This document shows, in pieces, positions 7,932 through 60,194 of a stretch of DNA of 64,000 bases (positions are counted from its first letter, which is position 1; each line of letters opens with the position of its first letter). This DNA is from Acidimicrobiia bacterium (GTDB lineage Bacteria; Actinomycetota; Acidimicrobiia; Spongiisociales; UBA5794), in NCBI GenBank assembly GCA_030066755.1, contig JASJAX010000006.1, positions 10,583-74,582 on the forward strand, given 5' to 3'. The notes beneath the pieces are model-generated. The model worked only from the letters and a program-made list of their open reading frames with translations. It did not search any database and had not been told where the DNA came from. The position numbers and the translations under genes were made by a program.

Positions 7932-8001
7932 CGCCAGTCGCCAGTCGCCAGTCGCCAGCGAGCGCAGCGGCGATCTGACGTCTGAGGTCTGACGTCTGAC
8001 G
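7932..8001. repeat. tandem heptamer repeats (CGCCAGT)x4 and (TCTGACG)x4 in divergent PAC2/hyhB intergenic region
   Basis: Direct reading: cgccagt cgccagt cgccagt cgccagc ... tctgacg tctgagg tctgacg tctgacg. Confidence 0.8.
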
Positions 8002-8104
8002 TCTCCCTGATCTGATCGACGGACTCCGCGGTTGCTGACGAAGGCCCCTATGTCGGGTGTGGGTGCGATCCGTACCTTGGCGGTGGAACGCAGAAGGAGC
8101 CGGT

Positions 8105-9253
8105 GTGCCAGAGACCCTTGTCCTCGACCGGTCGGGATTGGCGTCGATTCTCTCCGAATTGCGCGCTCGCGACTATCTCCTGGTCGGTCCCACGATTCAG
8201 CAGGAGGCGATCGGCTACGGCCCGATCGATTCTCTTGACGACCTTCCACAAGGCTGGACGAACGTCCAATCGCCTGGTGCGTCTCACCTCGAACGACGCG
8301 ACGACGAGCGTCTGTTCGGGTACGTGGTGGGGCCGCACTCGTGGAAGAAGTACCTGATGCCCAACGAGGTGGTGATCTGGAGAGGGGAGCGCACCGACAC
8401 GGGGTTCGAGACGGTTCCGCCGGAGCCGGCTCCGGCCTATGCGCTGTTCGGCGTCCGTCCGTGTGAAGTGGCCGCGATCGCGGTCCAGGACGCCGTCTTC
8501 ATGCCGACCGACCGTGTCTACCGCGAGCGGCGGGAAGCGGCCTTCATCGTCGCCGTGAACTGCACGCAGGCAGGAGCGAATTGCTTCTGCACCTCGATGG
8601 GAACGGGTCCCGCCGTCGGCGAGGACGCGGTCTTCGACATCGCGTTCACCGAAGTCGACCGCAACGGAACCCTCGCCTATCTCGTCGAGGCGGGCTCCGA
8701 CGACGGGGCAGCCGTGCTGCAAACCGTCGTTGGGGCCGAGCCGGCGAGCGATGCAGATCTCGCGATGCTCGAGTCGGTCCTCCAGGAGGCGGCCGCCTCG
8801 GTGACCAAGACGATGGACACCGATGGCATCCACGACCTGATGCTGGCCAATCTGCGCAATGGCTATTGGGAGGACGTCGGCGGACGCTGCCTGGCGTGCA
8901 CGAACTGCACGATGGTGTGCCCGACCTGCTTCTGCAATACGGTCGAGGACACGATGACGCTCGACGGAACGACCGCCGAGCGAACACGCAAGTGGGACTC
9001 GTGCTTCTCGATCGACTTCTCGTACATCCACGGCGGTCCGCTGCGGATGACTCCCGAAGCCCGGTATCGGCAATGGCTGACCCACAAGCTGGCCACCTGG
9101 TTCGACCAGTACGGGACGTCCGGGTGCGTCGGGTGCGGGCGATGTATCACCTGGTGTCCCGTCGGCATCGACCTGACCGCTGAAGTCGCTGCACTTCGGC
9201 GGGTGGATGCACGACAAGGCCTGTCGGTTCCCCTCCCGGAGGTGATGGCATGA
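8105..9253 (+). CDS. hyhB: [NiFe]-hydrogenase group 3b beta subunit (sulfhydrogenase HydB / AsrA-like Fe-S protein)
   Basis: Multiple Cys clusters (CEVAAI..., CTQAGANCFC, CLACTNCTMVCPTCFC, CVGCGRCITWCP). The GTG start is preceded by the SD GAAGGAG at 8093-8099. It is followed by gamma, small and large subunit genes. Confidence 0.8.
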   Translation: MPETLVLDRSGLASILSELRARDYLLVGPTIQQEAIGYGPIDSLDDLPQGWTNVQSPGASHLERRDDERLFGYVVGPHSWKKYLMPNEVVIWRGERTDTGFETVPPEPAPAYALFGVRPCEVAAIAVQDAVFMPTDRVYRERREAAFIVAVNCTQAGANCFCTSMGTGPAVGEDAVFDIAFTEVDRNGTLAYLVEAGSDDGAAVLQTVVGAEPASDADLAMLESVLQEAAASVTKTMDTDGIHDLMLANLRNGYWEDVGGRCLACTNCTMVCPTCFCNTVEDTMTLDGTTAERTRKWDSCFSIDFSYIHGGPLRMTPEARYRQWLTHKLATWFDQYGTSGCVGCGRCITWCPVGIDLTAEVAALRRVDARQGLSVPLPEVMA

Positions 9254-9714
9254 CCACGACCCTCGACCAAGTCCTGGGCGCCCAGGCGTTCTTCGCCGGT
9301 CTCGACGACGAGCACCTGGCGACGCTGGCGTCCGTTGCCGAACCGGTCAGTGTGGCGATCGGGAGGAAGGTCTTCCACGAAGGCGACGTCGCCGACGCCT
9401 GCTACCTGCTGCTCGAGGGCGATGTTGCACTCGAGATGGACATCCCCGGCCGTGGGCCGCATGTCCTCCAGACACTCCATGCGGGCGACATGCTCGGATG
9501 GTCGTGGCTCGTGTCTCCGTTCCGGTACGCATACGACGCCCAAGCTCTCACCGAGGTCAAGGCCATTCGGTTCGATGCGGTCGCGCTTCGCTCCGCAAAG
9601 GACACCGACAAGGTCTTCGGCTACGAACTGATGCAGCGTTTCGCAGAAGTGCTGGTACGGCGGATGCAAGCGGCTCGTCTCCAACTCCTGGATGTCTATG
9701 GCAACGCTCACTGA
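9250..9714 (+). CDS. cyclic nucleotide-binding domain protein
   Basis: 154 aa. The cNMP-binding fold pattern is FFAGLDDEHLATLA...GRKVFHEGDVADACYLLLEGDVAL...LHAGDMLGWSWL. The SD GGAGG lies at 9238-9242. The ATG overlaps the hyhB stop (ATGA). The 3' end overlaps the hyhG start by about 23 nt. Confidence 0.75.
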   Translation: MTTTLDQVLGAQAFFAGLDDEHLATLASVAEPVSVAIGRKVFHEGDVADACYLLLEGDVALEMDIPGRGPHVLQTLHAGDMLGWSWLVSPFRYAYDAQALTEVKAIRFDAVALRSAKDTDKVFGYELMQRFAEVLVRRMQAARLQLLDVYGNAH

Positions 9715-10546
9715 ACTCACACCAAAGCTCGCCCCGATGGAGCCGGTGCCCTTCGTGGTCCGGAGCATCCGCGACGAGCTATCAGACACCTTCACCCTCG
9801 AGCTCGATCCGCCCGATGGCGTGTTCGAGTTCCTCCCCGGCCAGTTCACGATGCTGTACGTGTTCGGTATCGGCGAGGTCCCGATCTCCGTATCCGGTGA
9901 TCCGGCGCAGCCGTCGACGCTCGTACAGACGATCCGTGGGGTCGGCGCCGTCACCTACGCCCTCCGCCAGGTGCGGCCCGGTGACGTCGTTGGCGTCCGC
10001 GGCCCGTTCGGTACCGAGTGGCCGCTGGCCGAGGCGGACGGACACGACATCGTCTTCGTTGCCGGTGGCATCGGGCTCGCTCCGCTCCGTCCGGCGATCT
10101 ACTCGGTGCTGGCCAACCGGCAGCGCTACGGGAAAGTCGTGCTCCTCTACGGCGCTCGTAGCCCGAGCGACATGCTCTTCACCCAGGAGCTCCTCGAATG
10201 GGGAGGCCGGTACGACGTCGACGTGTTGATCACTGTTGACAACGCAGACCGGCAGTGGCGCGGGGCGGTCGGGGTGGTCACGAAGCTCGTACGGCGGGCC
10301 CCGTTCGATCCGCATGACACTGTTGCGATGGTCTGCGGGCCAGAGGTGATGATGCGATTCAGCGCCCAGGAGCTCGAAGGCCGCGGGGTCCCCCAGCATC
10401 GGATCCACCTGTCGATGGAGCGCAACATGAAGTGCGGCATCGGCCTGTGCGGCCATTGTCAGTTTGGAGGTCGGTTCGTCTGTTGGCAGGGCCCGGTGTT
10501 CTCCTACGACGAACTCGCTCCGTTGCTCTTGGTGAAGGAGGTGTGA
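9692..10546 (+). CDS. hyhG: [NiFe]-hydrogenase group 3b gamma subunit (FAD/NAD(P)-binding, 2Fe-2S; HydG/AsrB-like)
   Basis: Collinear with Pyrococcus HydG. Matching segments are [34 protein letters not shown] and the C-terminal [15 protein letters not shown] cluster motif. An alternative start lies at about 9737. Confidence 0.85.
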
Positions 10547-10547
10547 G

Positions 10548-11362: not shown

Positions 11363-11366
<4 letters not shown>
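10548..11366 (+). CDS. hyhS: [NiFe]-hydrogenase small subunit (delta)
   Basis: [26 protein letters not shown] and [11 protein letters not shown] are the proximal/medial cluster Cys motifs of small subunits. The GTG start is preceded by the SD AAGGAGGTG. Confidence 0.85.
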
Positions 11367-12658
<1,292 letters not shown>

Positions 12659-12662
12659 TTGG

Positions 12663-13477: not shown

Positions 13478-14341
13478 ATGAACTACCGCATGCTCCTCTC
13501 AACTGCCCTCGCCGCCGTCATCGTGGTTGCCGCTTGCGGCGACACCAGTGACGATGCCTCGCCATCGTCGACCGACTCGACCAGCCCGACCACCGCGCCC
13601 TCGGGAGGAGCGACCTCGAGCGATCTCGTCGGAACCCGGTGGATCGTCGATGGACTCACGATCGGTGGCGCCGACTATTCCCTCGTCCCCGACGCCGACC
13701 CGACGATCGAGTTCTCAGCCGACCAGCCCACCATTGGAGGCACGACGGGCTGCAACAGCTACTTCGCCGAGGTCGAGTACCTCGCAGGCGGTGAGTTGCG
13801 CATCGGTGGCGTTGGACAGACCGAAATGGCCTGCTTCCCGCAGGAGGTCATGGACCAGGAAGCCCAGTTTGGGCTGGCGATCTCGCAGGTCGAGTTCTAT
13901 GAGCTCGACGGCGACCGGCTCACCCTCGCCAGCCTCGACGGATCGGTCATCATCTCAGCGGTGAACCGGGACAGCGTCGTGATGCCCGTCGAACTCGGCG
14001 GTGTCACCTGGATCGCCGATACCCGCATCGAACGAGATGCCGCTTCGACCCTCGTCGGTGGCAACGACGTCACCCTGACCTTCGACATGGCGCGAGGCAA
14101 CATCGGAGGCAACTCGGGCTGCAACCAGTTCGGCGCAACCTTTGTGATCGACGACGACCGGATTCGTGTCGCCGATCTCGTGGGTACCGAGATCGCCTGC
14201 GAGGAGCCCGTGATGGAACAGCAACGCTTCCTCTACGACGTCCTCTTGAACGCCGACACGTTCAACATCGACGACCGGCGGTTGACGATCCTCACCGCCG
14301 ACGGCCGCGGCATCAGCCTGGTGGCATCCGACACGGAATAA
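13478..14341 (+). CDS. lipoprotein with tandem META (HslJ-like) domains
   Basis: Signal peptide plus lipobox (VVAAC), a Ser/Thr-rich linker, and two repeats each containing GTRW/GVTW and GCNSY/GCNQF motifs. Confidence 0.6.
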   Translation: MNYRMLLSTALAAVIVVAACGDTSDDASPSSTDSTSPTTAPSGGATSSDLVGTRWIVDGLTIGGADYSLVPDADPTIEFSADQPTIGGTTGCNSYFAEVEYLAGGELRIGGVGQTEMACFPQEVMDQEAQFGLAISQVEFYELDGDRLTLASLDGSVIISAVNRDSVVMPVELGGVTWIADTRIERDAASTLVGGNDVTLTFDMARGNIGGNSGCNQFGATFVIDDDRIRVADLVGTEIACEEPVMEQQRFLYDVLLNADTFNIDDRRLTILTADGRGISLVASDTE

Positions 14342-14342
14342 C

Positions 14343-14377
14343 CAGTCGTCAGTCGTCAGTCGTCAGTCGTCAGTCGT
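14343..14377. repeat. tandem heptamer (CAGTCGT)x5 filling the convergent intergenic gap
   Basis: The whole 35-nt spacer between the lipoprotein stop and the flavodoxin stop is this repeat. Confidence 0.85.
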
Positions 14378-14862
14378 CAGCCCAGCTCATCCGCGATGTT
14401 CTCGGCCCAGGCCCCGATGTCGTCCCAGTCGCGGAAGTCGCCGTACGGGGCGCCGACCACCTTCACGATGGCACGCTCGGCAAAGCTCAGATCTTCCTTG
14501 ATCAGCTTGCCGTCGAACCACGTGTGACTGCGGGCCCCGGTGTCCTCCATCAGGGCGTCGAGCTGATTGAGCGCCGACTCGTTGTCATCCTCGTCGCCGA
14601 GCGGTCCGCTGCTGAAGATCCAGACCGGGAGCGTCTGCAGGTCCGCCGAGAACCGCTCGGCGAACTCGACCGCATCCTTGCGCCAGTTGCCTGCATAGAC
14701 GGCGCTTCCCAGTACGACGGCGTCGTATCCGGTCAGGTCGGTCACCTCCGCAGGATCGACGAGTTCGATCTCGAAGCTGCGGTCGATCAGTGTTTTGGCG
14801 ATGTGCTCGGCGATGCCGTACGTGGCGCCGTGCTTGCTTCCAGCGGTGACGAGAACCTTCAT
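14377..14862 (-). CDS. flavodoxin family protein
   Basis: MKVLVTAGSKHGATYGIAEHIA...VVLGSAVYAGNW... gives a flavodoxin-like fold signature. Length is 161 aa. Confidence 0.7.
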   Translation of the reverse strand: MKVLVTAGSKHGATYGIAEHIAKTLIDRSFEIELVDPAEVTDLTGYDAVVLGSAVYAGNWRKDAVEFAERFSADLQTLPVWIFSSGPLGDEDDNESALNQLDALMEDTGARSHTWFDGKLIKEDLSFAERAIVKVVGAPYGDFRDWDDIGAWAENIADELG

Positions 14863-17215: not shown

Positions 17216-18127
17216 TCAGCCCAGTGATTCGGGCGGCAGGATCCCGATCAAAGCGCCGCGGCGGTCGACGACCGGGACGGGTCCGTGCTCGTAGAAATCG
17301 GCCAGCCCGCCGAGCGAATCGAGATCGTCCTCGGTGACGACATAGGGTGGGGTCTCGAGTACGTCACCGACCTCGCGTTCGGGATCGAGGGACTCGAGCG
17401 TCGACCGGCGCACGATGCCGACCAACCGACCGGCGTCGGTGACCGGCGCTGTTGGCGTGCTTGTGAGCCGGAGCGCGTCCTCGGCTCGTGTGTGGAGGCC
17501 GATCGCCATTGCCTCGACGAGGTGTTGGAAGACGCGCCTTGGTGCGTCGCGAACGACGATCGCGCCGGCCGGAGAGTGGGCGCGCAGTCTCGCTCCCGGG
17601 CCAAGGAGCTGACGTGCGAGCCAGGACCCGCCGGGGGCGCCCAGCACGATGAGCGTCCCGTCTGCCAGCCCCGACACGAAATCGGCCGCGGCGGATGCCT
17701 CCACCACGTCGCCTGCAAGGCCGGTCCGCGCACGGACCTCAGTGAGTCGCGCTCGGGCAGGCCCGCGTGGAGCTCCCGGCCGGACCGTGGTCAGTGCCCC
17801 CGCCGGGACATCGAGCGCGGCGGCAACGCGGACGGTGATCGCAGCGGCAAGATCGGAATTCGGCCCGGTCGAGATGGCTGCGATCACCTCGCTGACGCCC
17901 GCCAGATCGACCTTGGACGGAACGGCCACGGGTACGAGGTCGAACGTCCCGAGAGATCGCATCACGGCCAGGTCTGCCCGCCGGTCGATACACGCCTTCG
18001 CCGGGTTCGCTTCGACCTGGTGGGCTGACTCCGTCGCAAGCAGCTCGGCGAGCTCTGAGCACCCTGGTCCTCGCGACCAAACAACGCAGCGGGGGAATGT
18101 GGCAGGATCGCGAGCGCGCTCGATCAT
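17216..18127 (-). CDS. Usp-like / CBS-pair domain protein
   Basis: The C-terminus carries CBS-like repeats (GIVRRSTLESL..., PVPVVDRRGALIGILP). The central region is UspA-like (GTLIVLGAPGGSWLARQLLG...AIVVRD). The start is set at MIERARD, because the long ORF's N-terminus runs through a heptamer repeat. Confidence 0.45.
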   Translation of the reverse strand: MIERARDPATFPRCVVWSRGPGCSELAELLATESAHQVEANPAKACIDRRADLAVMRSLGTFDLVPVAVPSKVDLAGVSEVIAAISTGPNSDLAAAITVRVAAALDVPAGALTTVRPGAPRGPARARLTEVRARTGLAGDVVEASAAADFVSGLADGTLIVLGAPGGSWLARQLLGPGARLRAHSPAGAIVVRDAPRRVFQHLVEAMAIGLHTRAEDALRLTSTPTAPVTDAGRLVGIVRRSTLESLDPEREVGDVLETPPYVVTEDDLDSLGGLADFYEHGPVPVVDRRGALIGILPPESLG

Positions 18128-18207
18128 TGGTTGTTGCGACTGTACTCGGAGCCCGCCGTTGTCGGCGTCGGCCAGACGGTTCGCTTCGCCGGCCACCGTC
18201 TCGCCGT

Positions 18208-18242
18208 GGCGACTGGCGACTGGCGGCTGGCGACTGGCGACT
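18208..18242. repeat. tandem heptamer (GGCGACT)x5, reverse complement of the CGCCAGT family
   Basis: Immediately 3' of the copA terminator hairpin GGCACC-GAA-GGTGCC (18243-18257). Confidence 0.85.
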
Positions 18243-18257
18243 GGCACCGAAGGTGCC
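18243..18257 (-). terminator. hairpin immediately downstream of copA stop
   Basis: GGCACC-GAA-GGTGCC abuts the stop codon (18258-18260 on +). There is no T-tract. Confidence 0.5.
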
Positions 18258-20414
18258 CTATTCGGCCCTCCTGAGCCGCAGTGAGTTCGTCACCACCGAC
18301 ACCGAGGAGAATGCCATCGCCGCGGCAGCAATCATCGGATTGAGCAGGCCGGCTGCAGCCAGCGGAATGGCCGCCGTGTTGTAGAAGAACGCCCAGAAGA
18401 GGTTCTGGCGGATCGTCCCGAAGGTGCGCTTGGCGAGCCGGAGTGCCGTTGCCGCGAGCGCCGGGTCACCCGACATCAAAACGATGTCGCCAGCTTCGAT
18501 GGCCACATCCGTGCCGGTTCCGACCGCCATGCCGAGATCTGCCTGGGTGAGGGCCGGAGCGTCATTGATGCCGTCGCCGACGAAGCCGACGATCTTGCCC
18601 TCGCCCTGCAGGCGCTGCACCTCGGCGCTCTTGTCGCCCGGCATCACCTCGGCGAGCACGTGTGCAATGCCGACCTGCTCGGCGATGGCGTCGGCGGTAC
18701 GACGATTGTCACCGGTCAGCATGACCGTGCCGGTGCCGGCCTCGTGCAGCGTCGCGATCGTGTCGGCGGAGCTGGGTCGCACGGTGTCGGCTACGGCGAG
18801 AACCCCACGGACCTCGCCGTCCCAACCTGCCAGAAACGCCGTCTTGCCTTCTCGCTCGAAGCGGTCCAGGGAGTCGAGATAGCGATCGGAGATCTGAAGC
18901 CCACGGTCGGCCATCAGCTTCGGCTTGCCCACCGTGACCTCAGTTCCTTCGACTCGGCCGACCACCCCGCGGCCGGAGACGGCCTCGACTTCGTTGACCG
19001 CTACGAGGTCGATGTCCCGCTCCTCGACGCCGAGGGCCACGCCCTTGCCGATCGGATGCTCACTGGCGGCTTCGACCGAGCCGACCAATCGCAGGAACTC
19101 ATCGACATCTCCGGTCGTATCGACATCGCTGAGCGTCATCGCCCCGCGGGTCAACGTCCCCGTCTTGTCGAAAACAACGGTGTCGATGGTGCGAGCTCGC
19201 TCGAAGACCTCGGCGCCCTTGAACAACACGCCCAACTCGGCGCCGCGGCCACTGCCGACCATGATCGCCGTAGGTGTAGCGAGACCGAGCGCACACGGGC
19301 AGGCAATGATCAGCACGGCGACCGAGTTGCGAACGGCTGTGGAGATCTCACCGCTGCCGACCAGCCACCCGATGAACACCACGATGGCGATTGCGATCAC
19401 GATCGGGACGAAGACACCGGCGACCCGATCGGCAAGGCGCTGGACGGGAGCCTTCGTTGCCTGAGCGTCCTCGACGAGGCGGACGATCTGCGCCAAAGCG
19501 GTGTTGGGTCCGACATGGGTGACCTCGATCTCGAGGCGGCCCTGCTGATTCACAGTGGCGCCATACACCGTGTCGCCGACCTCGTGGTCCACCGGGATGG
19601 ACTCTCCGGTGAGCATGGACTCGTCGACGGAGCTGCGGCCGGCGGTGATGACGCCATCGACAGGGACCTTCTCGCCCGGGAGAACGACGACGGTGTCCCC
19701 GGGGGCCAGCTCGAGCGGATCCACCATCTCGGCCTCGCCGTTACGGATGACCCGGGCTTCCTTGGCGCCGAGTTCGGCCAGCTTGGCGATGGCCTGACTG
19801 GCCTGCCCCTTCGCCCGGGCCTCGAAGAATCTCCCCAACAGGATGAGCGTGATGATCATGCCGGCCGTCTCGAAGAACACCGGCTCGCCGGTGAACAGCG
19901 CCCACACCGAGTAGAAGTAGGCGGCGAGTGACCCAACCGAGATCAGCGTGTCCATCGTTGCGTCGAGTCCACGCAATCGTTTGAAGGCGATGCGGTGGAA
20001 CTGTGCGCCGAAGACGAACACCACCGGTGTGGCGAGGATCAGTTGAGCGATGCGGTTGGCGTCGGACTTGGCCACGAGCATCGCAAGGATCATCAACGGG
20101 GCCGTGAACAGGGCGGCCAAGAGGACGTTTCGGCGCTGGAATCGCACCTCCTCGGCGTACCGCTCGACGGGGGTCACCCGCTCCTCGCCGGGAGCAAGGG
20201 GAGTGATTGCGTATCCGATCCGGTCGATCGCTGCCTGGAGGCCGGCGATCTCGGTGCCGGCGGCAACCGTCGCCCGCGCTTCCTGCCCGGCGAAGTTCAC
20301 AACCGCAGACTCGACACCGTCCTGACGCGACAGGATCCGCTCGATCCGCAGCGCACACGACGCACACGTCATCCCCTCGACGTCAAAGGTGACTCGTTCG
20401 GTGCTGTCAGTCAT
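18258..20414 (-). CDS. copA: copper-translocating P-type ATPase
   Basis: N-terminal HMA domain GMTCASC, a CPC transmembrane motif, DKTGTLT phosphorylation site, and GDGINDAP hinge. Confidence 0.9.
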
Positions 20415-20738: not shown

Positions 20739-20806
20739 GTGGGGATCTCCTGCTGGTTCGGTGGGGTCGAGAGGGGTGGGCCTCGAAGTGTAGGGAGGCG
20801 GCGGAG

Positions 20807-20834
20807 CTTGGGACTTGGGACTTGAGACCTGAGA
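20807..20834. repeat. tandem heptamers (CTTGGGA)x2 (CTTGAGA)(CCTGAGA)
   Basis: In the divergent copZ / radical-SAM region. Confidence 0.7.
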
Positions 20835-20837
20835 CCC

Positions 20838-21806
20838 GTGTCATACCCTGACCGTATGACGGTCCACGACCAGTTCCTCCTCCCCGACTACGAGCCTGCC
20901 TATCTCGAGGCGTACCGGTCGGGGCAGCTGCTCGAGAAGGTCGCGGCGGCTCGGCGAGAGCTCGAACACTGTCTCGCGTGTCCGCGCGACTGCGGGGTGA
21001 ACCGGCTGATCGACGAGCGTGGCGTTTGTCACGTCGGGCGCCACGCGATGGTGGCGAGCGCGTTCGCTCACTTCGGGGAGGAGAACTGCCTGCGGGGTCG
21101 AAACGGGTCCGGGACGATCTTCTTCAGCTACTGCAACCTCAAGTGTGTGTTCTGTCAGAACTGGGACATCTCGCAGGCACCCGCCGGCAGAGAATGCACA
21201 CCCGAGCAAGTGGCCGGGCTCATGCTCGAACTCCAGGGACAAGGCTGCCACAACATCAACTTCGTGACGCCGGAGCATGTCGCACCGCAGGTGGTTGAGG
21301 CCGTCGCGGCGGCGATTCCGCTCGGGTTGCGGGTACCGATCGTCTACAACACGAGCGCCTACGACGCGATGTCGTCGCTCGAGCTGATGGATGGCCTCGT
21401 CGATATCTACATGCCGGACTTCAAGTTCTGGGAGCCACAGACCGCTCGGCGATTGGCGCGTGCGAAGGACTACCCCGAGGTGGCCCGCACGGCGATCCGC
21501 GAAATGCACCGCCAGGTCGGAATCCTGCAGTTCGGGAGCGACGGGCTGGCGCGTCGTGGCGTACTCATTCGCCACTTGGTGATGCCCGGTCAAGCCAAGG
21601 AGTCGGCGGAGATCTTCCGGTGGCTCGCCGACGAGCTTTCGCCCGATACCTACGTCAACATCATGGGCCAGTATCGACCCGACCATCGGGTGCCGGGCGT
21701 CGACCGGTATCGAGACATCGATCGGAGGCCGGATCGGGCGGAGCTCGCCGCTGCCCGCGATGCCGCGGAAGTCGCGGGTCTACGGCGGTTCGCCGAGCGG
21801 TGGTGA
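20838..21806 (+). CDS. radical SAM protein (PflX / pyruvate formate-lyase-activating-like, COG1313)
   Basis: CNLKCVFCQNWDIS is a CxxxCxxC radical-SAM cluster motif. There is also an N-terminal Cys-rich region. The start may be GTG 20838 or ATG 20856. Confidence 0.75.
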   Translation: MSYPDRMTVHDQFLLPDYEPAYLEAYRSGQLLEKVAAARRELEHCLACPRDCGVNRLIDERGVCHVGRHAMVASAFAHFGEENCLRGRNGSGTIFFSYCNLKCVFCQNWDISQAPAGRECTPEQVAGLMLELQGQGCHNINFVTPEHVAPQVVEAVAAAIPLGLRVPIVYNTSAYDAMSSLELMDGLVDIYMPDFKFWEPQTARRLARAKDYPEVARTAIREMHRQVGILQFGSDGLARRGVLIRHLVMPGQAKESAEIFRWLADELSPDTYVNIMGQYRPDHRVPGVDRYRDIDRRPDRAELAAARDAAEVAGLRRFAERW

Positions 21807-23105: not shown

Positions 23106-23107
23106 GA

Positions 23108-23160
23108 AGTACTGAGTACTGAGTACTGAGTACTGAGTACTGCCGAGGCGGTAGCCTCGG
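23108..23160. repeat. (AGTACTG)x5 followed by hairpin CCGAGGC-GGTA-GCCTCGG
   Basis: Between the LtrA stop (23105) and the cysteine synthase ATG (23164). The hairpin ends 3 nt before the ATG. Confidence 0.85.
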
Positions 23161-23163
23161 CCC

Positions 23164-24120: not shown

Positions 24121-24193
24121 CGCGGCGTGATGGCGTTGCCATCACGTCCGCAGACTTCGGCTTCGCCGAAACTGCGACGCAGGCCCGTGTCTC

Positions 24194-24241
24194 TGTACTC
24201 AGTACTCGGTACTCAGTACTGGGACCGCCGAAGGCGGTCCC
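24194..24241. repeat. (GTACTCN)x4 followed by hairpin GGGACCGCC-GAAG-GCGGTCCC
   Basis: tgtactc agtactc ggtactc agtactg. A separate inverted repeat CGTGATGGC...GCCATCACG lies at about 24126-24148. Confidence 0.8.
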
Positions 24242-27833: not shown

Positions 27834-27843
27834 ATCAGCGTCG

Positions 27844-27871
27844 CAGGTCCCAGGTCTCAAGTCCCAGGTCA
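27844..27871. repeat. (CAGGTCY)x4
   Basis: caggtcc caggtct caagtcc caggtca, between the SPFH fragment and the 3' end of the selenoprotein candidate. Confidence 0.75.
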
Positions 27872-28256: not shown

Positions 28257-28295
28257 GGTCTCTATCCGAGACCTGAGACCTGAGACCTGTGACCC
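28257..28295. repeat. GGTCTC/GAGACC inverted pair followed by (GAGACCT)x3 and GTGACCC
   Basis: ggtctctatccgagacc tgagacc tgagacc tgtgaccc. This is the reverse complement of the CAGGTCT family. Confidence 0.8.
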
Positions 28296-28509
28296 GGCCG
28301 GGCGCGCAAGGATCCCCCTCCCTTTCAGGGAGGGGTGGCCTCGACGAAGTCGAGGTCGGGGAGGGTGTCCGCACTGGACTCGATCACGGTGGCGCACGGT
28401 TCTCACTCATCGAGTGCTGGGAGCCCCCGGAGCCGAGCCGTGGAGACCCTCCCCTGCCTGCTTCGCAGGCTGTCCCCGCCCTACAAGGGCGGGGGATCCG
28501 GTGACGAAC

Positions 28510-39158: not shown

Positions 39159-39176
39159 GGTACTGAGTACCTCGGG
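39159..39176. repeat. degenerate heptamers (GTACTGA)(GTACCTC)
   Basis: Weak copy of the AGTACT family after the small membrane protein gene. Confidence 0.4.
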
Positions 39177-39182
39177 ACCCAG

Positions 39183-39896
39183 GTGAGTGGATTGGACGAC
39201 TGGATCCACGCTCCGAACATCACGAGCGATCCAGCGACCTATGAGCTCGAGAACGAAGCCCTGTTGCGGGATGGGCGACTCGACGAGGCGCTCTATTCGA
39301 TCGCACCGTGGGATGGCCGAACCCTGATCGATGTGGGCTGCGGCACCGGATTCTGGCTGCCGATCTACTCCCGCAAAGCTGAGAGCGTCATCGGGGTGGA
39401 GCCCGACCCGACTCTGCTCGCATTGGCTTCGGCCCGCAGCTTGGCCGCGAACGTCGATGTCCGGCAGGGATCAGCGGAGCACCTCCCGGTCGCTGATGGC
39501 ACTGCCCATATCGTTCACGCCCGCTTTGCCTATTTCTTCGGGCCTTGGGCGGACCCAGGGCTTCGGGAGGTAGCGAGGGTCTTGACGCCGGATGGTGTCC
39601 TTCTGGCAGTCGACAACAGCTCGAGCGGCGGAGACTTCGCACGACTGTTGCAGGCCGAGGACGATGGCGATCCACCACTCGATCCGAGCGATACTGACCG
39701 GTGGTGGGCTGATCGGGGAGCACGACGCCATGAGGTTGTTGGAGGCTGGCAGGCATCGAGCACCCAAGAGCTCGAGCGCATCCTCCGGATCGAGTTCTCT
39801 GATCGGGTCGTCGACGACTTCATGGCTGGCCACACATCGCCGTCATTGAGCTACCAGTTCGCCGTCTACGAATGGCGCCCACACCGGCAACCCTGA
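39183..39896 (+). CDS. class I SAM-dependent methyltransferase
   Basis: Motif I LIDVGCGTGFWL. Motif post-I VIGVEPD. Confidence 0.75.
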   Translation: MSGLDDWIHAPNITSDPATYELENEALLRDGRLDEALYSIAPWDGRTLIDVGCGTGFWLPIYSRKAESVIGVEPDPTLLALASARSLAANVDVRQGSAEHLPVADGTAHIVHARFAYFFGPWADPGLREVARVLTPDGVLLAVDNSSSGGDFARLLQAEDDGDPPLDPSDTDRWWADRGARRHEVVGGWQASSTQELERILRIEFSDRVVDDFMAGHTSPSLSYQFAVYEWRPHRQP

Positions 39897-42518: not shown

Positions 42519-44201
42519 ATGACCGGAGACCTGAATCGCACCAGCCGCCGCATCACGCAAGAGGCATCACAGGGAGGGTCCCAGGCGATGCTCTTCGCCA
42601 CCGGGCTCACCCCGGACGACATGGGCAAGGCCCAAGTCGGGATCGCTGCGATGTGGTACGAGGGCAACTCGTGCAACATGCACCTCAACGATCTCGCCGC
42701 ACGAGTCCGTGACGGGGTGATGGCATCCGACATGGTCGGTATGCGCTTCAACACGATCGGAGTGTCCGACGGTATGTCGATGGGCACCGACGGGATGAGC
42801 TTCTCCCTGCAGTCGCGTGACCTCATCGCCGACTCGATCGAAACCGTCATGCGGGCGCACTGGTACGACGCCAACGTCTCGATTCCCGGCTGCGACAAGA
42901 ACATGCCGGGCTCGATCATCGGGATGGCACGGGTCAACGTCCCATCGCTGATGATCTACGGCGGCACGATTCGTGCCGGCCACCGATCCGACGGCACGCC
43001 GATCGACATCGTCTCAGCGTTCCAGTCGTACGGCGAGATGATCGCCGATCGCCTGAGCAACGACGAGCGGCTGGACATCGTCCGCAACGCCTGCCCCGGA
43101 GCCGGCGCTTGCGGTGGCATGTACACGGCCAACACGATGGCGTCGGCCATCGAGGCGCTCGGCATGACGCTGCCGTACAGCTCGTCGACGCCCGCCACCG
43201 ATCCGGCGAAGCTCGACGAGTGTTTCCGAGCCGGCGCGGCAATCCGGAGCCTGCTCGAGGACAACATCACGCCACGTGACATCATGACCCGGGCCGCGTT
43301 CGAGAACGCGATGGTGCTCACGATGGCGCTCGGTGGATCGACGAACGCCGTGCTGCACCTCCTCGCCATGGCGAGGGCAGCCGATGTCGACCTGCAGCTC
43401 GACGACTTCCAGGCGACGAGCGACCGAGTTCCGTTCCTCGCCGACCTCAAGCCGAGCGGCCGGTACGTGATGGAAGACCTGCACGCGGTCGGCGGCACAC
43501 CTGCGGTCCTCAAGCTGCTGCTCGAGCACGACGCCATCGACGGTTCCTGCCTCACCGTGACCGGTCGGACGCTCGCAGAGAACCTCGCCGACCTGCCGGG
43601 ACTCGCCGATGACCAGCGGATCGTGCAGCCATGGGACCAGCCGATCAAGGACTCAGGCCACATCCAGATCCTCCGCGGCAACCTCGCCCCGGACGGTGCC
43701 GTGGCCAAGATCACCGGCAAAGAAGGCCTGCGTTTCTCGGGCACGGCCAAGACGTTCGATCGTGAAGAGGACATGGTGCCGGCGCTCGAGCGAGGCGAGA
43801 TCGGACCGGGCGACGTGGTCGTCATCCGCTACGAGGGGCCCAAGGGAGGCCCAGGGATGCCCGAGATGCTGACCCCGACGTCGGTCATCGTCGGAGCGGG
43901 TCTCGGCAACGACGTTGCTCTCATCACCGACGGCCGGTTCTCCGGCGGATCCCACGGCTTCATCATCGGCCACGTCACGCCCGAAGCGCAGGTGGGCGGT
44001 CCGATCGCCCTGGTCGAGGACGGCGACATCATCACGATCGATGCCACGACCCGGTCGATTTCGGTCGACCTCGACGACGAGGAGTTGACTCGCCGCCGCG
44101 CTGCCTGGACGGCCCCGCCCCTCAAGGCGACCCGTGGCACCCTGCACCGCTACATCAAGACGGTGAAGTCGGCGAGCGAAGGCTGTGTGACCGACGAATA
44201 G
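42519..44201 (+). CDS. ilvD: dihydroxy-acid dehydratase
   Basis: [27 protein letters not shown] and the GHV...[16 protein letters not shown] cluster motifs are canonical for IlvD/EDD. Confidence 0.9.
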
Positions 44202-44259
44202 CCAGGCCTCCGGCCTGGCTATTCGAGTACTGAGTACCGAGTACTGAGTACCGAGACCA
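44202..44259. repeat. hairpin CCAGGCC-TCC-GGCCTGG then (GAGTACY)x4 + GAGACC
   Basis: Directly after the ilvD stop. Reads gagtact gagtacc gagtact gagtacc gagacc. Confidence 0.85.
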
Positions 44260-44313
44260 GAACGCCCCTACCTCGCGAAACGCGTCTGAAGCGGTCTGCG
44301 CGACAATCGGATC

Positions 44314-44757
44314 GTGCTGTTGCGCGAACGATCGGACCAGGCTGTCGAGCTTTCGATTGTGGGCTACCAGTTCGAGAATGCTTCTGACGAATGGGATCGG
44401 AACTGGCTGGTTGTCGAAGGCCACGTCCACCTGCCGGGGCAGGAGTGGCGTTTTCGTGATCCTTGCCTCACCACTTGGGAGGCCCACGAGCTGGCTGCCT
44501 GGCTCTCGAACGTCTCCGCAGCTCGGTCGGCGGACACCGCAATCTCGTTCACTGAGCCGAATCTGTGTTTCGAGTGGCAAGGCGTATCGAGCGAGTTCGT
44601 GGAAGTCCGAGTGTCCTTCGAACTCGAAGCGCGACCCGCTGAGATGCGGAACCTCCCGTGGGGTGGCTGCTACGTCGATCTCACGATTGGGCGCAGCGAT
44701 CTTGCGGCAGCCGGCACGGATTTGCTCCTCGAACTGATGGACTATCCGCAGCGCTGA
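44314..44757 (+). CDS. hypothetical protein
   Basis: 147 aa with coding-like composition. No motif recognised. Confidence 0.4.
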   Translation: MLLRERSDQAVELSIVGYQFENASDEWDRNWLVVEGHVHLPGQEWRFRDPCLTTWEAHELAAWLSNVSAARSADTAISFTEPNLCFEWQGVSSEFVEVRVSFELEARPAEMRNLPWGGCYVDLTIGRSDLAAAGTDLLLELMDYPQR

Positions 44758-44759
44758 GC

Positions 44760-44810
44760 GGTCTCGGTACTCAGTACTCGGTACCAAGTACTGCGCAGCT
44801 ACGCTGCGCA
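44760..44810. repeat. GTCTCG + (GTACTCR)x2 + GTACCAA + GTACTG, then hairpin TGCGCAGC-TAC-GCTGCGCA
   Basis: Between the hypothetical gene stop and the SelW-like ATG (44812). The hairpin ends 1-2 nt before the ATG. Confidence 0.85.
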
Positions 44811-47426: not shown

Positions 47427-47515
47427 CGGCGGAAGTCTACGAGCGGCGTGCCGCCGCGAGTCCAGGTACCAAGTAGGCAACGGCCGTAGGCCCTTGCCAT
47501 CGGTATCCTCCCCGC

Positions 47516-50608: not shown

Positions 50609-50766
50609 GCGGAGCGGGCAAAGTGGGTGCGATTCGAGGCAAGCTCGCACTACGGCGCAGCGAAGAGGTGGCGGCGGCGGCGACGTGGTGGCCAATGCAT
50701 GCGTTCATTGTGCCATGCAGCCGGGATCGTCGAGAACGTACCTTCCCCCCAAGGGGGACTGTGCAG

Positions 50767-55902: not shown

Positions 55903-55932
55903 CGGCCCGATCTCCGGACGTTTCCAGGCCCT

Positions 55933-56120: not shown

Positions 56121-57626
56121 ATGCGCTCTGGCATCATCAACCGGCGGGCTGTGCTCGCCATCGTTTCCGTACTCGCGATGCTGATGGCGGTGTTGACCGC
56201 TGCACCGGCGTCGGCGCACGGCTCGGAGTGCGACCACCGGTACGTGCACCGGCACGGCGGCGACACCTGGAAGGTCTATCCGAACGGCGTTGACGACACG
56301 GCGAACATCAAGTGCGCACTGGAGGAGGCGTCGCATCACGACGGGGCAGTCGTCAAGCTGGCCTGGGGCACGTTCCACGTCGACTTCCTGAAGGTCGATG
56401 GATTCAACGGCGTCCTCCGCGGCGGAGGTCAAGATCACACCAGGATCGAACCGCTCTACGGAGGCCTGGACTGCAAAGCCGAGTTCGAGGCGACCGGGTT
56501 CGTCGTGTGGATGGTGTTCACACGTTCACATCTCAAGGTGAAGAACCTGTCGATCGTGATCCCGGAGCAAGCATGTGCCGAGCCGTACATCGAGGACATC
56601 TTCTTCGACGAGGAACTCGGCGAGGAAGTCGGCTTCGTCGGCCAGGACTTCAATTTCATCCTCGGAAGCGTCAGCCGGCTTGCCGCGCCGACGGACCAAT
56701 GCGGTATCACCGAATACGGGAGTCTGACGGCCAAGGGTGTGAGCATCTGGGCACCGACCCCGGACTTCGAGGCGTCGATCTTCAATCCGCTCGGTGCGTT
56801 CAGCGCCTTCAGAGTCGGCGGCACGCAGCCGCTCGGCTGCCCGGACTTCGACGACCTCGTCGGCAGCGTGATGATCAAGGACGTGAAGGCTGCTGGCGTC
56901 GGGAACCTGATCGAAGTCATCTCGATGACCGACTCCAAGGTCACGGTCAAGAAGAACCACCTCAGTGAGATCGCCAGTGGCGTGAGGCTGTCCTACAACG
57001 ACGGCACGACGTACAACGTCCGCAAGAACCACATGGAGAGCATGCTTGGTGAGGGCGTCATCATCGACAACTGCACCTTCGGGTCCGAGGGGCCGCTCTG
57101 TGCGGAGACGGCATCGCACGGCTACGTGATCCACAACGACATCCAGCTGGCTCCGGGAGCCGGCATCGGCATGGGTATCTTCGACGGCCCGTTCGACGAG
57201 TTGCTGTTCCCAGCCTTGCTCGACGTCAAGGTGGCCAAGAACTCGATCAGCGGCGAGGAACTCTTCGCCGGCATGCTCATGTTCGGCAATGACGGCACGG
57301 TCGTCGCCGGCAACCATTTCGCCGGTTCAGGCGTCTTCGGCATGTTGGTCGATGGGCAGGAGATCGCGCAGTTCAAGGCGGTGAACAACAAGATCGTCCT
57401 GAACTCGTTCGCCGACTTCCTGGCCTTCGACGCGGGGATCCTGCTCGCCGAGCTGACGGCATACAACATCGTTGCGGGCAACGTCGGTGCCACGATCGTC
57501 GATCTGGGGATGGACAACTACGTGAGAGGCAACGTCGAGCCCGAGGCAACGCTCGAGTCGAGCCTGTTCCGAGCGGAGACCGTTGACGGCCTCCGGGACT
57601 ACGGAATCAACCGCTACGGCCGCTGA
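56121..57626 (+). CDS. secreted right-handed beta-helix (pectate-lyase-fold) repeat protein
   Basis: Has a signal peptide. Repeated GxxxxN/G-rich turns are typical of parallel beta-helix proteins. A canonical terminator follows downstream. Confidence 0.5.
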   Translation: MRSGIINRRAVLAIVSVLAMLMAVLTAAPASAHGSECDHRYVHRHGGDTWKVYPNGVDDTANIKCALEEASHHDGAVVKLAWGTFHVDFLKVDGFNGVLRGGGQDHTRIEPLYGGLDCKAEFEATGFVVWMVFTRSHLKVKNLSIVIPEQACAEPYIEDIFFDEELGEEVGFVGQDFNFILGSVSRLAAPTDQCGITEYGSLTAKGVSIWAPTPDFEASIFNPLGAFSAFRVGGTQPLGCPDFDDLVGSVMIKDVKAAGVGNLIEVISMTDSKVTVKKNHLSEIASGVRLSYNDGTTYNVRKNHMESMLGEGVIIDNCTFGSEGPLCAETASHGYVIHNDIQLAPGAGIGMGIFDGPFDELLFPALLDVKVAKNSISGEELFAGMLMFGNDGTVVAGNHFAGSGVFGMLVDGQEIAQFKAVNNKIVLNSFADFLAFDAGILLAELTAYNIVAGNVGATIVDLGMDNYVRGNVEPEATLESSLFRAETVDGLRDYGINRYGR

Positions 57627-57651
57627 GCGCGAGACGCAGTGAACATCCGAA

Positions 57652-57680
57652 GGGGGCGGCCATCCGGCCGCCCCCTTCTT
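57652..57680 (+). terminator. rho-independent terminator after beta-helix gene
   Basis: GGGGGCGGCC-ATCC-GGCCGCCCCC followed by TTCTT. Confidence 0.8.
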
Positions 57681-57713
57681 GTCTCGGTCTCAGTACCCGG
57701 TACTCGGTACTCC
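57681..57713. repeat. heptamers GTCTCG GTCTCA GTACCCG GTACTCG GTACTCC
   Basis: Immediately after the terminator, between convergent genes. Confidence 0.8.
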
Positions 57714-57726
57714 GAATGAGCTTGGC

Positions 57727-58851
57727 TCATTCGGACAACGCACACTCGTTTCGTCCGACCTCGAGCTCCATGGCTTCGTCGTGGGTCGGGATGTGCCAGC
57801 CCATGTTGACTTCGCGGATCGTGGCGTAGACCCCGGGCGCCTCGCCGAGATGGGAGACCACGTACGCAACGAACTCGCCCTCGTCGTCCATCGACACGAC
57901 CGGATCGTTGGCGAGGAGGTCACCGAGCTTGCGCCGTAGCGTTCCATCGGCCTGCGACTCGAGGCGGCTCGTGTAGTGGGCCGGGCAGACCTCGAGCTCC
58001 GAGTCGAGTGGTGCCAGCTGCTCGTGGATCGTGCGGAACAGATCGCGCGCCCACGGTTCCGTCTCGCCACCGAGGTCGGGTCTGCCGACCCCCGACACGA
58101 AGACTGCGTCACCCGTCATGAGGTAGCGGCCGTCGACCTCGAGCGAGGTGGACCCAGGGGTGTGTCCGGGAGTTGCCACCGACCGAACGATGATCTGCAT
58201 CGTGCCGAGTTGGAAGACGGCACCGTCGGTGAGCGCGTCGTACTTGAAGTGGGCTCCCTCGGCGTCGCCCGGTGCGATGTGATAGGTCGCCCCGAACTCG
58301 GCGGCCATCTGCACCCCGAGGGAGAGGTGGTCGGCGTGCAGGTGAGTGTCGAACACGTCGGTGATCTCGCACTCCATGTCGGCGGCGATCCGCTCGTACG
58401 CTGATGCGTCTCCGGCCGGGTCGATCACCGCCATCGACGATCCGCGAGATCCGACGGCGTACGACAGGCACGCCTTGGCGATTCGATCGAGCTGGACGAC
58501 GAACTTGGTCCCGTCGTCATACAGGACGTGCGGGACCAGGGTGCGTGCCCAGGCGTCCATTCCTCCGGCGAGGTTGTGCAGGTTGTCGAGCCCCAAGGTC
58601 TCGACGACGAGGTCGGATGAGTCGCCGTGCGCACATACGACGACTACCTCGCGGTCGTGGGGCACGACCTCCCTGGTCTCCTCGTCGTCGACGATCGCCG
58701 TCCAGTACGGGATGTTGAGGGTGGCCATGTCGGCCTTCCCCTCGATCTGCCATCGCTCGAACTGATCGGGTGCGCGAACGTCGAGAATGAATGGCGCAGA
58801 ATCGGGATCGTCGACGCGTCGGGCCAACTCGTCGGTCGTGATGGCAGTCAC
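57727..58851 (-). CDS. rhodanese-domain / MBL-fold persulfide-dioxygenase-like fusion protein
   Basis: N-terminal rhodanese domain (ILDVRAPDQFERWQIEG...VVVVCAHGDSS). C-terminal metallo-beta-lactamase domain with HLHADH. GTG 58851 is preceded by a GGGGAGAGAG SD-like sequence. An alternative ATG lies at 58887. Confidence 0.7.
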   Translation of the reverse strand: MTAITTDELARRVDDPDSAPFILDVRAPDQFERWQIEGKADMATLNIPYWTAIVDDEETREVVPHDREVVVVCAHGDSSDLVVETLGLDNLHNLAGGMDAWARTLVPHVLYDDGTKFVVQLDRIAKACLSYAVGSRGSSMAVIDPAGDASAYERIAADMECEITDVFDTHLHADHLSLGVQMAAEFGATYHIAPGDAEGAHFKYDALTDGAVFQLGTMQIIVRSVATPGHTPGSTSLEVDGRYLMTGDAVFVSGVGRPDLGGETEPWARDLFRTIHEQLAPLDSELEVCPAHYTSRLESQADGTLRRKLGDLLANDPVVSMDDEGEFVAYVVSHLGEAPGVYATIREVNMGWHIPTHDEAMELEVGRNECALSE

Positions 58852-58937
58852 AGGCTCTCTCCCCAGGTCGCATGCGTCAAGGCGCATACAACTCTAACGA
58901 GGCGCGGCGATCCGCCACAAGGAGTTTCTGCGTTTCG

Positions 58938-59255
58938 CTAGCTGAGGCTCGTTGCGGAGCCGAGCTGCTCGTTCATGACCTCGCGGAGCAGATCCATGGC
59001 TTCGACGATCTTGGTCGACGTGAGCGAGTAGTACACCCACTGGCCGTCACGGCGACCCGTCACCAGCCCGCGATCGCGAAGCACGGCGAGATGCTGGGAA
59101 ACGTTGGCCTGCGGGATATCGAGGTCATCGACGAGATCGGTCACAGAGCGCTCGCCATCGCGCAAGGCGTTGAGGATCAACAGTCGCTTCGGGTCGGCGA
59201 GACCTTTGCAGACGCTGGCGTGGAGTTGGTAGAGCTCGTTGCGGATCGATGACAT
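58938..59255 (-). CDS. ArsR/SmtB family transcriptional regulator
   Basis: ELYQLHASVCKGLADPKRLLILNAL...QANVSQHLAVLRDRGLV is a winged-HTH ArsR signature. Length is 105 aa. Confidence 0.8.
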   Translation of the reverse strand: MSSIRNELYQLHASVCKGLADPKRLLILNALRDGERSVTDLVDDLDIPQANVSQHLAVLRDRGLVTGRRDGQWVYYSLTSTKIVEAMDLLREVMNEQLGSATSLS

Positions 59256-59309
59256 GGCTGAACTATGCCATACCCCCGCGGCAAGGCCAAGGGCGGACCA
59301 CGGCGAACT

Positions 59310-59331
59310 GGTTGACAGATGATGGTCAACC
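59310..59331. promoter_or_regulatory. candidate ArsR-family operator GGTTGAC-N8-GTCAACC in divergent arsR / dsrE-like promoter region
   Basis: Perfect 7-bp inverted repeat. A locally AT-rich segment follows, caatgcatatatctgcgatgca (59348-59369), with its own TGCAT/ATGCA inverted repeat. Confidence 0.5.
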
Positions 59332-59387
59332 CGGCGAGGATGCACACCAATGCATATATCTGCGATGCAAGCGGGAGGGAGGACCCG

Positions 59388-59873
59388 ATGACCGACTCGT
59401 CCGAGAAGATGGTGATCATCGCGGCTTCCGGCGACCTCGATAAGGCGTGGCCGGTGATGATCCTGGCGACGACCGGTGCGGCCTACGGCATGGATGTCAC
59501 CGTGTTCTTCACTTTCTGGGGCCTCGGGATCCTGAAGAAGCCGGATGCCGGTCTCACGGGTGACGACTGGCGTCAGAAGATGCTCTCGGTCTTCAAGCCC
59601 GGGTCCACGGGCAAACTCGGCCTCTCGACGATGAACATGGGCGGCATGGGCGCGAAGATGATGAAAGGGCTGGCCGACGACCACAACGTGGCTTCGGTTC
59701 AGGAGCTGCTCGAGATGTCACAGGACATGGGAGTGAAGCTCTGGCCGTGCCAGATGACGATGGATCTGATGGGGTTATCGCGTGATGACATGATCGACGG
59801 CCTCGACGAACCGGCCGGCGCCGGCTCAGCCATCAGCCTCATGAAGGAAGCCTCGATCAGCTTGTTCATCTAG
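59388..59873 (+). CDS. DsrE/DsrF-like family protein
   Basis: KMVIIAASGDLDKAWPVMILATTGAAYGMDVTVFFTFWGL is a DsrE-like fold. SD GGGAGGGAGGA lies upstream. Confidence 0.7.
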   Translation: MTDSSEKMVIIAASGDLDKAWPVMILATTGAAYGMDVTVFFTFWGLGILKKPDAGLTGDDWRQKMLSVFKPGSTGKLGLSTMNMGGMGAKMMKGLADDHNVASVQELLEMSQDMGVKLWPCQMTMDLMGLSRDDMIDGLDEPAGAGSAISLMKEASISLFI

Positions 59874-59903
59874 GAGCGCACCAGAGAGAGGGAGAGAACC
59901 GAA

Positions 59904-60128
59904 ATGGCAGATGCAACCGTCGATGCTCGAGGCCTCCAGTGCCCGATGCCTGTGATCAAGGTCTCGCAGGCCGTCAAGGGCATGGAGTCCGGGCAGACCG
60001 TCGAGGTCATCGCAACCGACCGTGGCGCCTTGTCGGACATCCCGGCATGGGCCAAGGACATGGGCCACGCGCTGAAGGAGCAGTTCGAAGAGAACGACGA
60101 GTTCCACTTCATCGTCCAAAAGGGGTAG
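59904..60128 (+). CDS. TusA-like sulfurtransferase
   Basis: 74 aa. GLQCPMPVIK carries the CPxP motif. Confidence 0.8.
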   Translation: MADATVDARGLQCPMPVIKVSQAVKGMESGQTVEVIATDRGALSDIPAWAKDMGHALKEQFEENDEFHFIVQKG

Positions 60129-60160
60129 TTCGTACGTGCAGGAAGTAGCGTTGTCGTTCC

Positions 60161-60194
60161 GGTCTCAGTACTCAGTACTCGGTACTCAGTACTG
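60161..60194. repeat. (GGTCTCA)(GTACTCA)(GTACTCG)(GTACTCA)(GTACTG)
   Basis: Between the tusA-like stop and the FeS-NrfD gene. Confidence 0.85.

Follow-up and report, generated by a model that had tools for sequence, protein, structure and literature searches.

Heptanucleotide tandem arrays in the intergenic spacers of an Acidimicrobiia genome: long simple sequence repeats that may turn over by slippage

The short tandemly repeated repetitive (STRR) sequences of cyanobacteria, reported by Mazel et al. in 1990, are said to be heptamers with the units CCCCAGT, TTGGTCA and CAACAGT. In the survey of long simple sequence repeats (LSSRs) by Mrazek, Guo and Shah (2007), as far as it is quoted in two later papers (PMC4679880, PMC4692102), heptamers were the most abundant class of long simple sequence repeats and were patchy among relatives; according to the same quotations, heptamer LSSRs were typical of larger, high-GC, non-pathogen genomes including Actinobacteria, slippage was the proposed origin, and a 7-nt interaction with the polymerase was suggested. 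The heptamer TAACTGA was found in intergenic arrays of 2–6 copies in marine Beggiatoaceae, Cyanobacteria and Bacteroidetes, and a binding protein was hypothesised (MacGregor 2015, PMC4679880). The G-rich units GGGAATC/GGGGAYT of Xanthomonas and Nostoc form G-quadruplexes, and arrays of four units are sharply preferred (Rehm et al. 2015, PMC4692102), and the Geobacter metallireducens genome contains (GGGACCG)4 at 49 loci and (MTYCTGA)5 at 16 loci, annotated as putative global regulatory elements (PMC2700814). Neither a published explanation of the preference for period 7 nor a description of heptamer arrays like the present ones in Acidimicrobiia was found in the literature. The subject of this analysis was a 64-kb stretch from the metagenome-assembled genome of an uncultured Acidimicrobiia bacterium (contig JASJAX010000006.1, positions 10,583–74,582), referred to as the window, in which tandem arrays of 7-nt units are dispersed through the intergenic spacers. 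With a probability of roughly 0.55, these arrays are heptanucleotide long simple sequence repeats of the LSSR/STRR class, non-coding and turning over by slippage. They add a new lineage to the known heptamer-repeat phenomenon and reveal no new phenomenon.

The arrays were located by Tandem Repeats Finder (TRF) and by our own period scans, and an array was called clear when at least 12 of 14 positions matched at lag 7. TRF and the lag-7 scan gave 13 clear period-7 arrays, with 3–6.6 copies each, and 3 weaker ones; whole arrays were 27–45 nt long. All 16 sites listed in an earlier note on this stretch had period 7, and three of them were of the weaker kind: 27840 with 79% matches, 39159 with about 2 units, and the degenerate 52264. 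Five period-7 arrays in the window contained at least three perfect copies, whereas no array of periods 4–6 or 8–15 reached that number and 50 dinucleotide-preserving shuffles gave 0.0 such arrays. The density of these arrays was about 78 per Mb in the window, which was about 15-fold higher than the 5 per Mb in a background of 1.33 Mb of unrelated bacterial loci, including at least 80 loci of IlvD homologues from other phyla with 59–74% identity. In this background, 7 arrays of period 7 with at least three perfect copies were counted beside 5, 7 and 2 of periods 5, 6 and 8, respectively. When the threshold was lowered to 2.5 copies, the count for period 7 was 24, above that of period 8 (3) and below those of periods 5 (113) and 6 (44).

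A gene map built by self-trained codon scoring, which was concordant with database gene calls on overlapping contigs, assigned 93% of the window to coding and 7% to intergenic DNA. The called intergenic DNA held 12 of the 13 clear arrays, and the remaining one, at 18205, overlapped a GTG start that was probably mis-called; this annotated start, which belongs to a 343-aa gene, lies inside the array. The 16 arrays occupied 552 of the 4541 intergenic nt (12%), and of the roughly 41 spacers with a length of 25 nt or more, 15 (37%) held an array, which is fewer than the "most intergenic spacers" of the earlier note. No hit to Rfam at the gathering score, and no tRNA or tmRNA, was obtained for the arrays.

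When the described systems were compared with the window arrays, the LSSRs were matched in the 7-nt head-to-tail tandem structure, the length beyond chance, the mostly intergenic location and the patchy occurrence among close relatives. The assignment to the LSSR/STRR class follows from tandem units of 7 nt, within the 5–11 nt of the class, and from excess over chance, non-coding location, whole-unit changes and sporadic distribution. The window genome was not included in the LSSR survey, and it differs from it in the coexistence of related unit families, the abutment of arrays on hairpins and the swapping of whole spacers. As with the STRR sequences, several heptamer families per genome are dispersed in non-coding DNA, and two of the STRR units also phase as CAGT-NNN; however, the host here is a member of the Actinomycetota with 65% GC, the units are different, and STRR arrays can be much longer. 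The window arrays are thus not STRR sequences in the strict cyanobacterial sense, the host being an acidimicrobial one with its own units. The TAACTGA repeats are likewise lineage-patchy heptamers containing CTGA, and most window units read as NNNCTGA on one strand. However, TAACTGA is one unit only, strongly biased to the forward orientation and to positions immediately 5' of start codons, whereas the window arrays are unoriented and lean to 3' spacers. The GGGAATC repeats share the genome-wide distribution, the non-coding excess, the proximity to stop or start codons and the small copy number. They differ in their G-tracts, as no run of three G is present in the units CAGTACT, CAGGTCT and CAGTCGY, and in their sharp copy-number mode, which was not seen among the window arrays. 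The Geobacter elements are also multicopy sites of 4–5 tandem heptamers, one family with CTGA, but their sequences differ, some copies are intragenic, and no hairpin association was reported there.

Mycobacterial interspersed repetitive units (MIRUs) measure 40–100 bp and sit between the genes of operons, and the small repeat elements (SREs) of Deinococcus are mosaic elements of 60–215 bp. The variable-number tandem repeats of the MIRU type and the SREs share with the window arrays the small size, the dispersal, the intergenic location and the restriction to particular genomes; they have neither a 7-nt, microsatellite-like structure nor a specific period. The analogy that had been drawn to them therefore joined different kinds of object, and heptanucleotide long simple sequence repeats are the right comparison, while the more general proposal of a small repeat family specific to the genome or lineage was supported.

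A common phase, C-R-G-K-N-S-Y, fitted every unit when it was read on the appropriate strand. The unit families were CAGTACT/CGGTACT, which is a 6-bp palindrome plus one base; CAGGTCT/CAGGTCC/CAAGTCC; CAGTCGC and CAGTCGT; and CAGACGT, which is GACGTC plus T. These families, the mosaic at 60161 and the array filling the whole spacer at 14343–14377 agreed with the first description of the stretch. The arrays, with a two-unit proto-array and one spacer segment that bears an array in a close strain, were as follows.

7925–7960, + strand: (CAGTCGC) array of about 4.7 copies in a divergent spacer (TRF, period scans)
7974–8007, − strand: (CAGACGT) array, GACGTC plus T on the − strand, about 4.4 copies, in the same divergent spacer as the 7925 array (TRF, lag-7 scan)
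14341–14383, + strand: (CAGTCGT) array of 5.4 perfect copies, filling a 35-nt convergent spacer and overlapping both stop codons
15561–15605, + strand: (CAGGTCT) array of 4.4 perfect copies in a convergent spacer
18205–18248, − strand: (CAGTCGC) array of 5.6 copies, 3' of a P-type ATPase stop codon, abutting hairpin 18243–18257
20803–20836, − strand: mosaic of CAGGTCT/CAAGTCC in a divergent spacer, just upstream of a radical-SAM gene
23106–23144, − strand: array reading AGTACTG on the + strand, 5 perfect copies, directly after the LtrA stop codon, abutting hairpin 23142–23161
24191–24220, + strand: CAGTACT/CGGTACT array of 4.3 copies, abutting hairpin 24221–24241
27840–27870, + strand: degenerate CAGGTCC/CAGGTCT/CAAGTCC array of 4.4 copies, 79% matches
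28264–28296, − strand: CAGGTCT array (− strand) of 3.9 copies, whose first unit forms a weak hairpin, 28257–28273, with an upstream GGTCTC
39159–39185, − strand: weak array-like stretch of about 2 units (GTACTGAGTACC)
44224–44255, − strand: array with a 14-nt super-period (CGAGTACTGAGTAC), 2.3 double units, abutting hairpin 44195–44225 with a 14-bp stem
44763–44793, + strand: CGGTACT CAGTACT CGGTACC AAGTACT, nearly the reverse complement of the 44224 array, abutting hairpin 44792–44810
47462–47475, + strand: two-unit proto-array CCAGGTA CCAAGTA in a divergent spacer, abutting hairpin 47476–47498
50737–50763, no strand: spacer segment with hairpin TCCCCCCAAGGGGGA, replaced by an array-bearing segment in contig L230
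52264–52291, − strand: degenerate CAGTACT-type array in a divergent spacer
57683–57714, + strand: CGGTCT CAGTACC CGGTACT CGGTACT in a convergent spacer, between hairpins 57649–57678 and 57711–57735
60161–60193, + strand: mosaic of GGTCT followed by CAGTACT CAGTACT CGGTACT CAGTACT, polymorphic between strains

The CAG phase was on the + strand in nine arrays and on the − strand in seven. In the tandem spacers of the window it was sense in 5 and antisense in 3. For the CAG-type arrays that lie up to 120 nt 3' of a stop codon in high-GC loci from metagenomes and viruses, 15 sense and 18 antisense cases were counted among the matches listed. The orientation of the arrays thus had no bias relative to the genes, which argues against a strand-specific RNA role. 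The idea that three NNNCTGA units supply TGA in all three frames was rejected, as the TGA strand was sense in only 3 of 8 tandem spacers. A role as restriction or methylation sites, for which the earlier note suggested looking for a methyltransferase, did not find support in the sequence: AGTACT, GGTCTC and GACGTC were not avoided outside the arrays in the window, where AGTACT occurred 13 times against about 6 expected and GGTCTC 47 times against 44 expected.

The common phase of all units would also suit a different explanation, namely that the arrays are functional binding platforms on which a DNA- or RNA-binding protein reads the CAG-N4 register, one unit per subunit or domain, beside a hairpin. 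Such a platform would influence termination, the stability of mRNAs or the local structure of the DNA and would be kept by selection while the sequences co-drift; we regard it as possible but rather doubtful. Similar proposals were made for TAACTGA (PMC4679880) and for the Geobacter heptamers (PMC2700814), and the narrow range of array length in the window, 3–6.4 units, is consistent with it. The missing strand bias with respect to transcription speaks against a reader at the RNA level, but the GTAC-type units are nearly palindromic. In addition, the families differ at 3–4 of the 7 unit positions, spacers containing promoters and spacers containing terminators both hold arrays, and no candidate protein was found.

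Orthologous spacers of relatives were compared with the window; the compared sequences carry L numbers. Contig L227 was about 86% identical and syntenic, and its orthologous spacers kept the arrays with changed units and copy numbers. The (CAGTCGT)5.4 of site 14341 was represented by about 3.5 impure copies, the (CAGGTCT)4.4 of site 15561 by (CAAGTTC)5, the (CAGTCGC)5.6 of site 18205 by a mixture of CAGTCGT and CAGTCGC without the hairpin, and the five perfect AGTACTG copies of site 23106 by about 1.5 degenerate copies. In L237, which was 78–81% identical, the hairpin-array-hairpin layout of spacer 57626–57727 was kept with CCAGGTA units, and site 47462–47475 had four CCAGGTA units where the window has two, beside a conserved hairpin. 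That orthologous sites still hold arrays at 86% and even at about 79% identity, despite the change in sequence, would be expected of a binding platform. However, the distribution among relatives was patchy: arrays were present in L227 and L237, and none was found in 39 kb of the relatives L086 and L229, so that a platform would have to be dispensable.

Two observations on these relatives stand apart. At about 2400–2440 of L227, corresponding to window 20740–20840, a hexamer array (CCCCAG)5 is followed by opposite-strand heptamers where the window has CAAGTCC/CAGGTCT, so that a period of 7 is not universal in this clade. The gene 3' of the P-type ATPase differs in every relative: at window 17216–18247 it encodes a CBS-domain protein, whereas L227 has a gene for a 102-aa protein at this place, L229 one for a fatty-acid desaturase and L086 one for a META-domain protein. 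A synteny break therefore falls on this array-bearing spacer.

Contigs of at least six independent assemblies, made from different samples, contained these arrays internally and with identical bases. Contigs of several assemblies end exactly at arrays, namely L001 (14342), L082 (18236), L084 (23163), L085 (24229) and L230 (60180), which could point to an artefact of assembly or sequencing; such breaks are expected where the same array sequences are repeated around a short-read assembled genome. With the recurrence in independent assemblies and the modified forms in relatives, the arrays are not artefacts, and the probability left to that explanation is negligible. The absence elsewhere that would have refuted the earlier note was thus not observed. 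In L233, which was 98.7% identical to the window, array 60161 had an exact deletion of 14 nt, or two units, and in L085 the same G-to-C change was present in two units 14 nt apart. The check for copy-number polymorphism suggested earlier was thus answered by variation in unit multiples. In L083 (1434–3570, against window 18258–20414), the P-type ATPase gene was called as two pieces, of 154 and 561 aa, and lacked about 20 nt of the window sequence, which is either a frameshifted allele or an assembly error.

The whole-unit deletion and the differences in unit and copy number between orthologous arrays are consistent with growth in place by slippage. A two-unit proto-repeat would arise first, usually right against a stable GC hairpin that may act as the trigger. 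The array would then expand and contract in steps of 7 or 14 nt through strand misalignment during replication or repair, and repeated slippage would homogenise the units within an array by concerted evolution while the unit sequence drifts between species; point mutations would finally erode the array. Selection would act mainly to exclude arrays from reading frames, the units would have no sequence-specific function, and the preference for period 7 would stem from the machinery of replication or repair, in line with the proposal of Mrazek. Slippage is also favoured by the many period-7 arrays with quite different units that are carried by unrelated genomes.

Several results weigh against slippage as the whole explanation. 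Few unit families were reused across the loci, with about 8 loci of the GTAC type, about 5 of the GGTCTC type and 3 of the CAGTCG type, and a composite GGTCTC-(CGGTACT CAGTACT)2 was common to five GTAC-type loci. In L237, a CAGTCGY array was present in a spacer that is absent from the window. Such reuse is not expected from independent slippage of random seeds, so that ectopic copying, mutational bias or selection of motifs is also needed. The recurrence of unit families within the genome, and at non-orthologous sites in L237, is a further point for a binding platform. Most copy numbers were identical among strains of 98.4–99.9% identity, and the arrays are therefore not hypervariable.

Whole spacers were replaced between near-identical strains, which goes beyond slippage alone. 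Between tusA and the Fer4/NrfD gene, L236 (2454–2544) and part of scaffold L234 (1992–2073) carry a spacer after the TusA stop codon that is unrelated to window 60129–60223, although the flanks are 99.7–99.9% identical. The breakpoint lies exactly at the stop codon, and the alternative spacer consists of two inverted CAGGTCN-family arrays that could pair as a hairpin. Heptamer arrays are thus present in both alleles of the swapped spacer, which would again suit a binding platform. In L230, which was 99.9% identical, about 100 nt (767–869) stand in place of the 33-nt segment with the TCCCCCCAAGGGGGA hairpin; the replacement carries an AGTACT-type array abutting a different hairpin, and the stop codon is changed from TAG to TGA.

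These replacements lead to another explanation, in which the arrays, with or without the abutted hairpin, were written or moved by a dedicated process and not grown in place. A tiny mobile or recombination module, hairpin-targeted insertion, and ectopic gene conversion between arrays are candidates for this process, which we consider unlikely. It would account for the near-identical 30–35-nt composites at five loci, for sharp-edged whole-spacer replacements at a stop codon within 99.9% identical flanks, one of which brings array and hairpin together, and for the coincidence of array spacers with synteny breaks such as that 3' of the ATPase gene. One small gene lies between inverted copies of an array, at 44224 and 44763, and AGTACT arrays occur in viral contigs too. 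However, a longer mobile element around the arrays was rejected, since between loci only the array was shared, with different flanks and hairpins, and the non-array parts of the alternative spacer alleles had no match among the other sequences compared. Features of miniature inverted-repeat transposable elements or repetitive extragenic palindromes, such as a conserved body, terminal inverted repeats, target duplication or a linked transposase, were not detected at the window arrays. The composite was found in 0 of the 140 other array-bearing loci among the matches listed, and the gradual change of unit and copy number at orthologous arrays fits growth in place.

The hairpins are the third point on which slippage falls short. 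Perfect GC hairpins numbered 27 in the intergenic DNA of the window, of which 8 were within 8 nt of an array. Where an array shared its spacer with a perfect GC hairpin, 6 of 8 arrays abutted it at 0–1 nt; random placement in the same spacers gave about 1.3 abutting arrays on average, and 6 was reached in 0 of 20,000 simulations. The abutment is thus highly non-random, which a binding platform would also explain. As a general trait of heptamer arrays it did not hold, since only 7 of 267 arrays among the metagenome and viral matches listed showed it. Hairpins at 18243, 23142, 24221, 44195, 44792, 57649 and 57711 were confirmed, whereas that at 28257 was weak and arose from the array's own unit. 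The hairpin at 44195–44225 overlaps the ilvD stop codon. All hairpin sequences were different, and hairpins were found on either side of the arrays; the arrays themselves were not stem-loops, except weakly for palindromic units.

The adjoining hairpins may be U-less terminators, and the arrays could belong to intrinsic terminators as a tail or upstream element of such actinobacterial hairpins. This was supported by the share of spacers of at least 25 nt with an array, which was 4 of 6 for convergent and 8 of 22 for tandem spacers but 3 of 13 for divergent ones, by the many arrays that start 0–10 nt 3' of a stop codon or immediately behind a hairpin that follows one, and by the lack of canonical U-tract terminators in the examined 14–30 kb region. 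However, the enrichment in 3' spacers was not statistically significant on these numbers; neither the side of the hairpin nor the orientation of the array is fixed; and four arrays, as well as the 47462 proto-array with its hairpin, sit in divergent spacers, which contain no 3' ends. In addition, the 14341 and 15561 arrays had no hairpin at all and 19 of the 27 intergenic hairpins had no array. A terminator role is thus very unlikely, and the earlier statements that arrays occur in convergent, tandem and divergent spacers alike and are not explained by terminators alone agree with these counts.

Hairpin and array may together form an exchangeable intergenic module that is written, copied or replaced by a dedicated, hairpin-anchored process, such as a recombinase acting on CAG-N4 registers, or the priming of repeat synthesis or of gene conversion by a hairpin at which replication has stalled. 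We give this quite a low likelihood, and the diversity of the hairpin sequences tells against any dedicated process. If true, it would open a mechanistic approach to why 7-nt repeats are in excess among bacteria and their phages. Slippage alone leaves four points, namely unit reuse, hairpin abutment, whole-spacer swaps and the 7-nt period, and on their account both a binding platform and dedicated writing stay alive beside the slippage of long simple sequence repeats. The lineage is a compact natural test set for these questions, with several unit families, hairpin abutment, orthologous arrays at four levels of divergence and spacer alleles at the strain level.

The wider distribution was surveyed by a GTACTCRGTACTCRGTACT scan, which gave at least 120 metagenome-contig stretches and 20 viral-contig stretches. 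In the listed matches, 778 kb in total, 305 arrays had period 7, whereas periods 8 and 9 were represented by 20 and 10 arrays, respectively. The units in these loci were highly varied, and inverted pairs of arrays were common. A universal heptamer core of CTGA/CAG was rejected, as its enrichment was confined to the genomes with AGTACT arrays, where 25 of 105 other units had it, and was missing from the background loci.

Close inverted array pairs were present in L167 (10–130 and 2219–2295), L112 (433–685 and 3461–3627), L038 (2782–2871), L048 (808–898) and L008 (6172–6256), and such pairs in unrelated genomes could fold as long hairpins with a 7-nt periodic stem. L112 was extremely dense, with 16 arrays in 6.6 kb. 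Among the putatively viral or proviral IMG/VR contigs L207–L226, several had multiple AGTACT-type arrays, for example IMGVR_UViG_3300035125_000073, 3300043259_000130 and 3300038379_000845, and L212 had 10 period-7 arrays in 13.5 kb.

In practical terms, assemblies of these Acidimicrobiia from short reads are interrupted at the arrays, and a few arrays could be used to tell strains apart. The small gene flanked by the inverted arrays 44224 and 44763 is WapI-like, and at its start, at 44297–44345, a 25-nt unit occurs twice (TGCGCGACAATCGGACCAGGCTGT, 80% matches).

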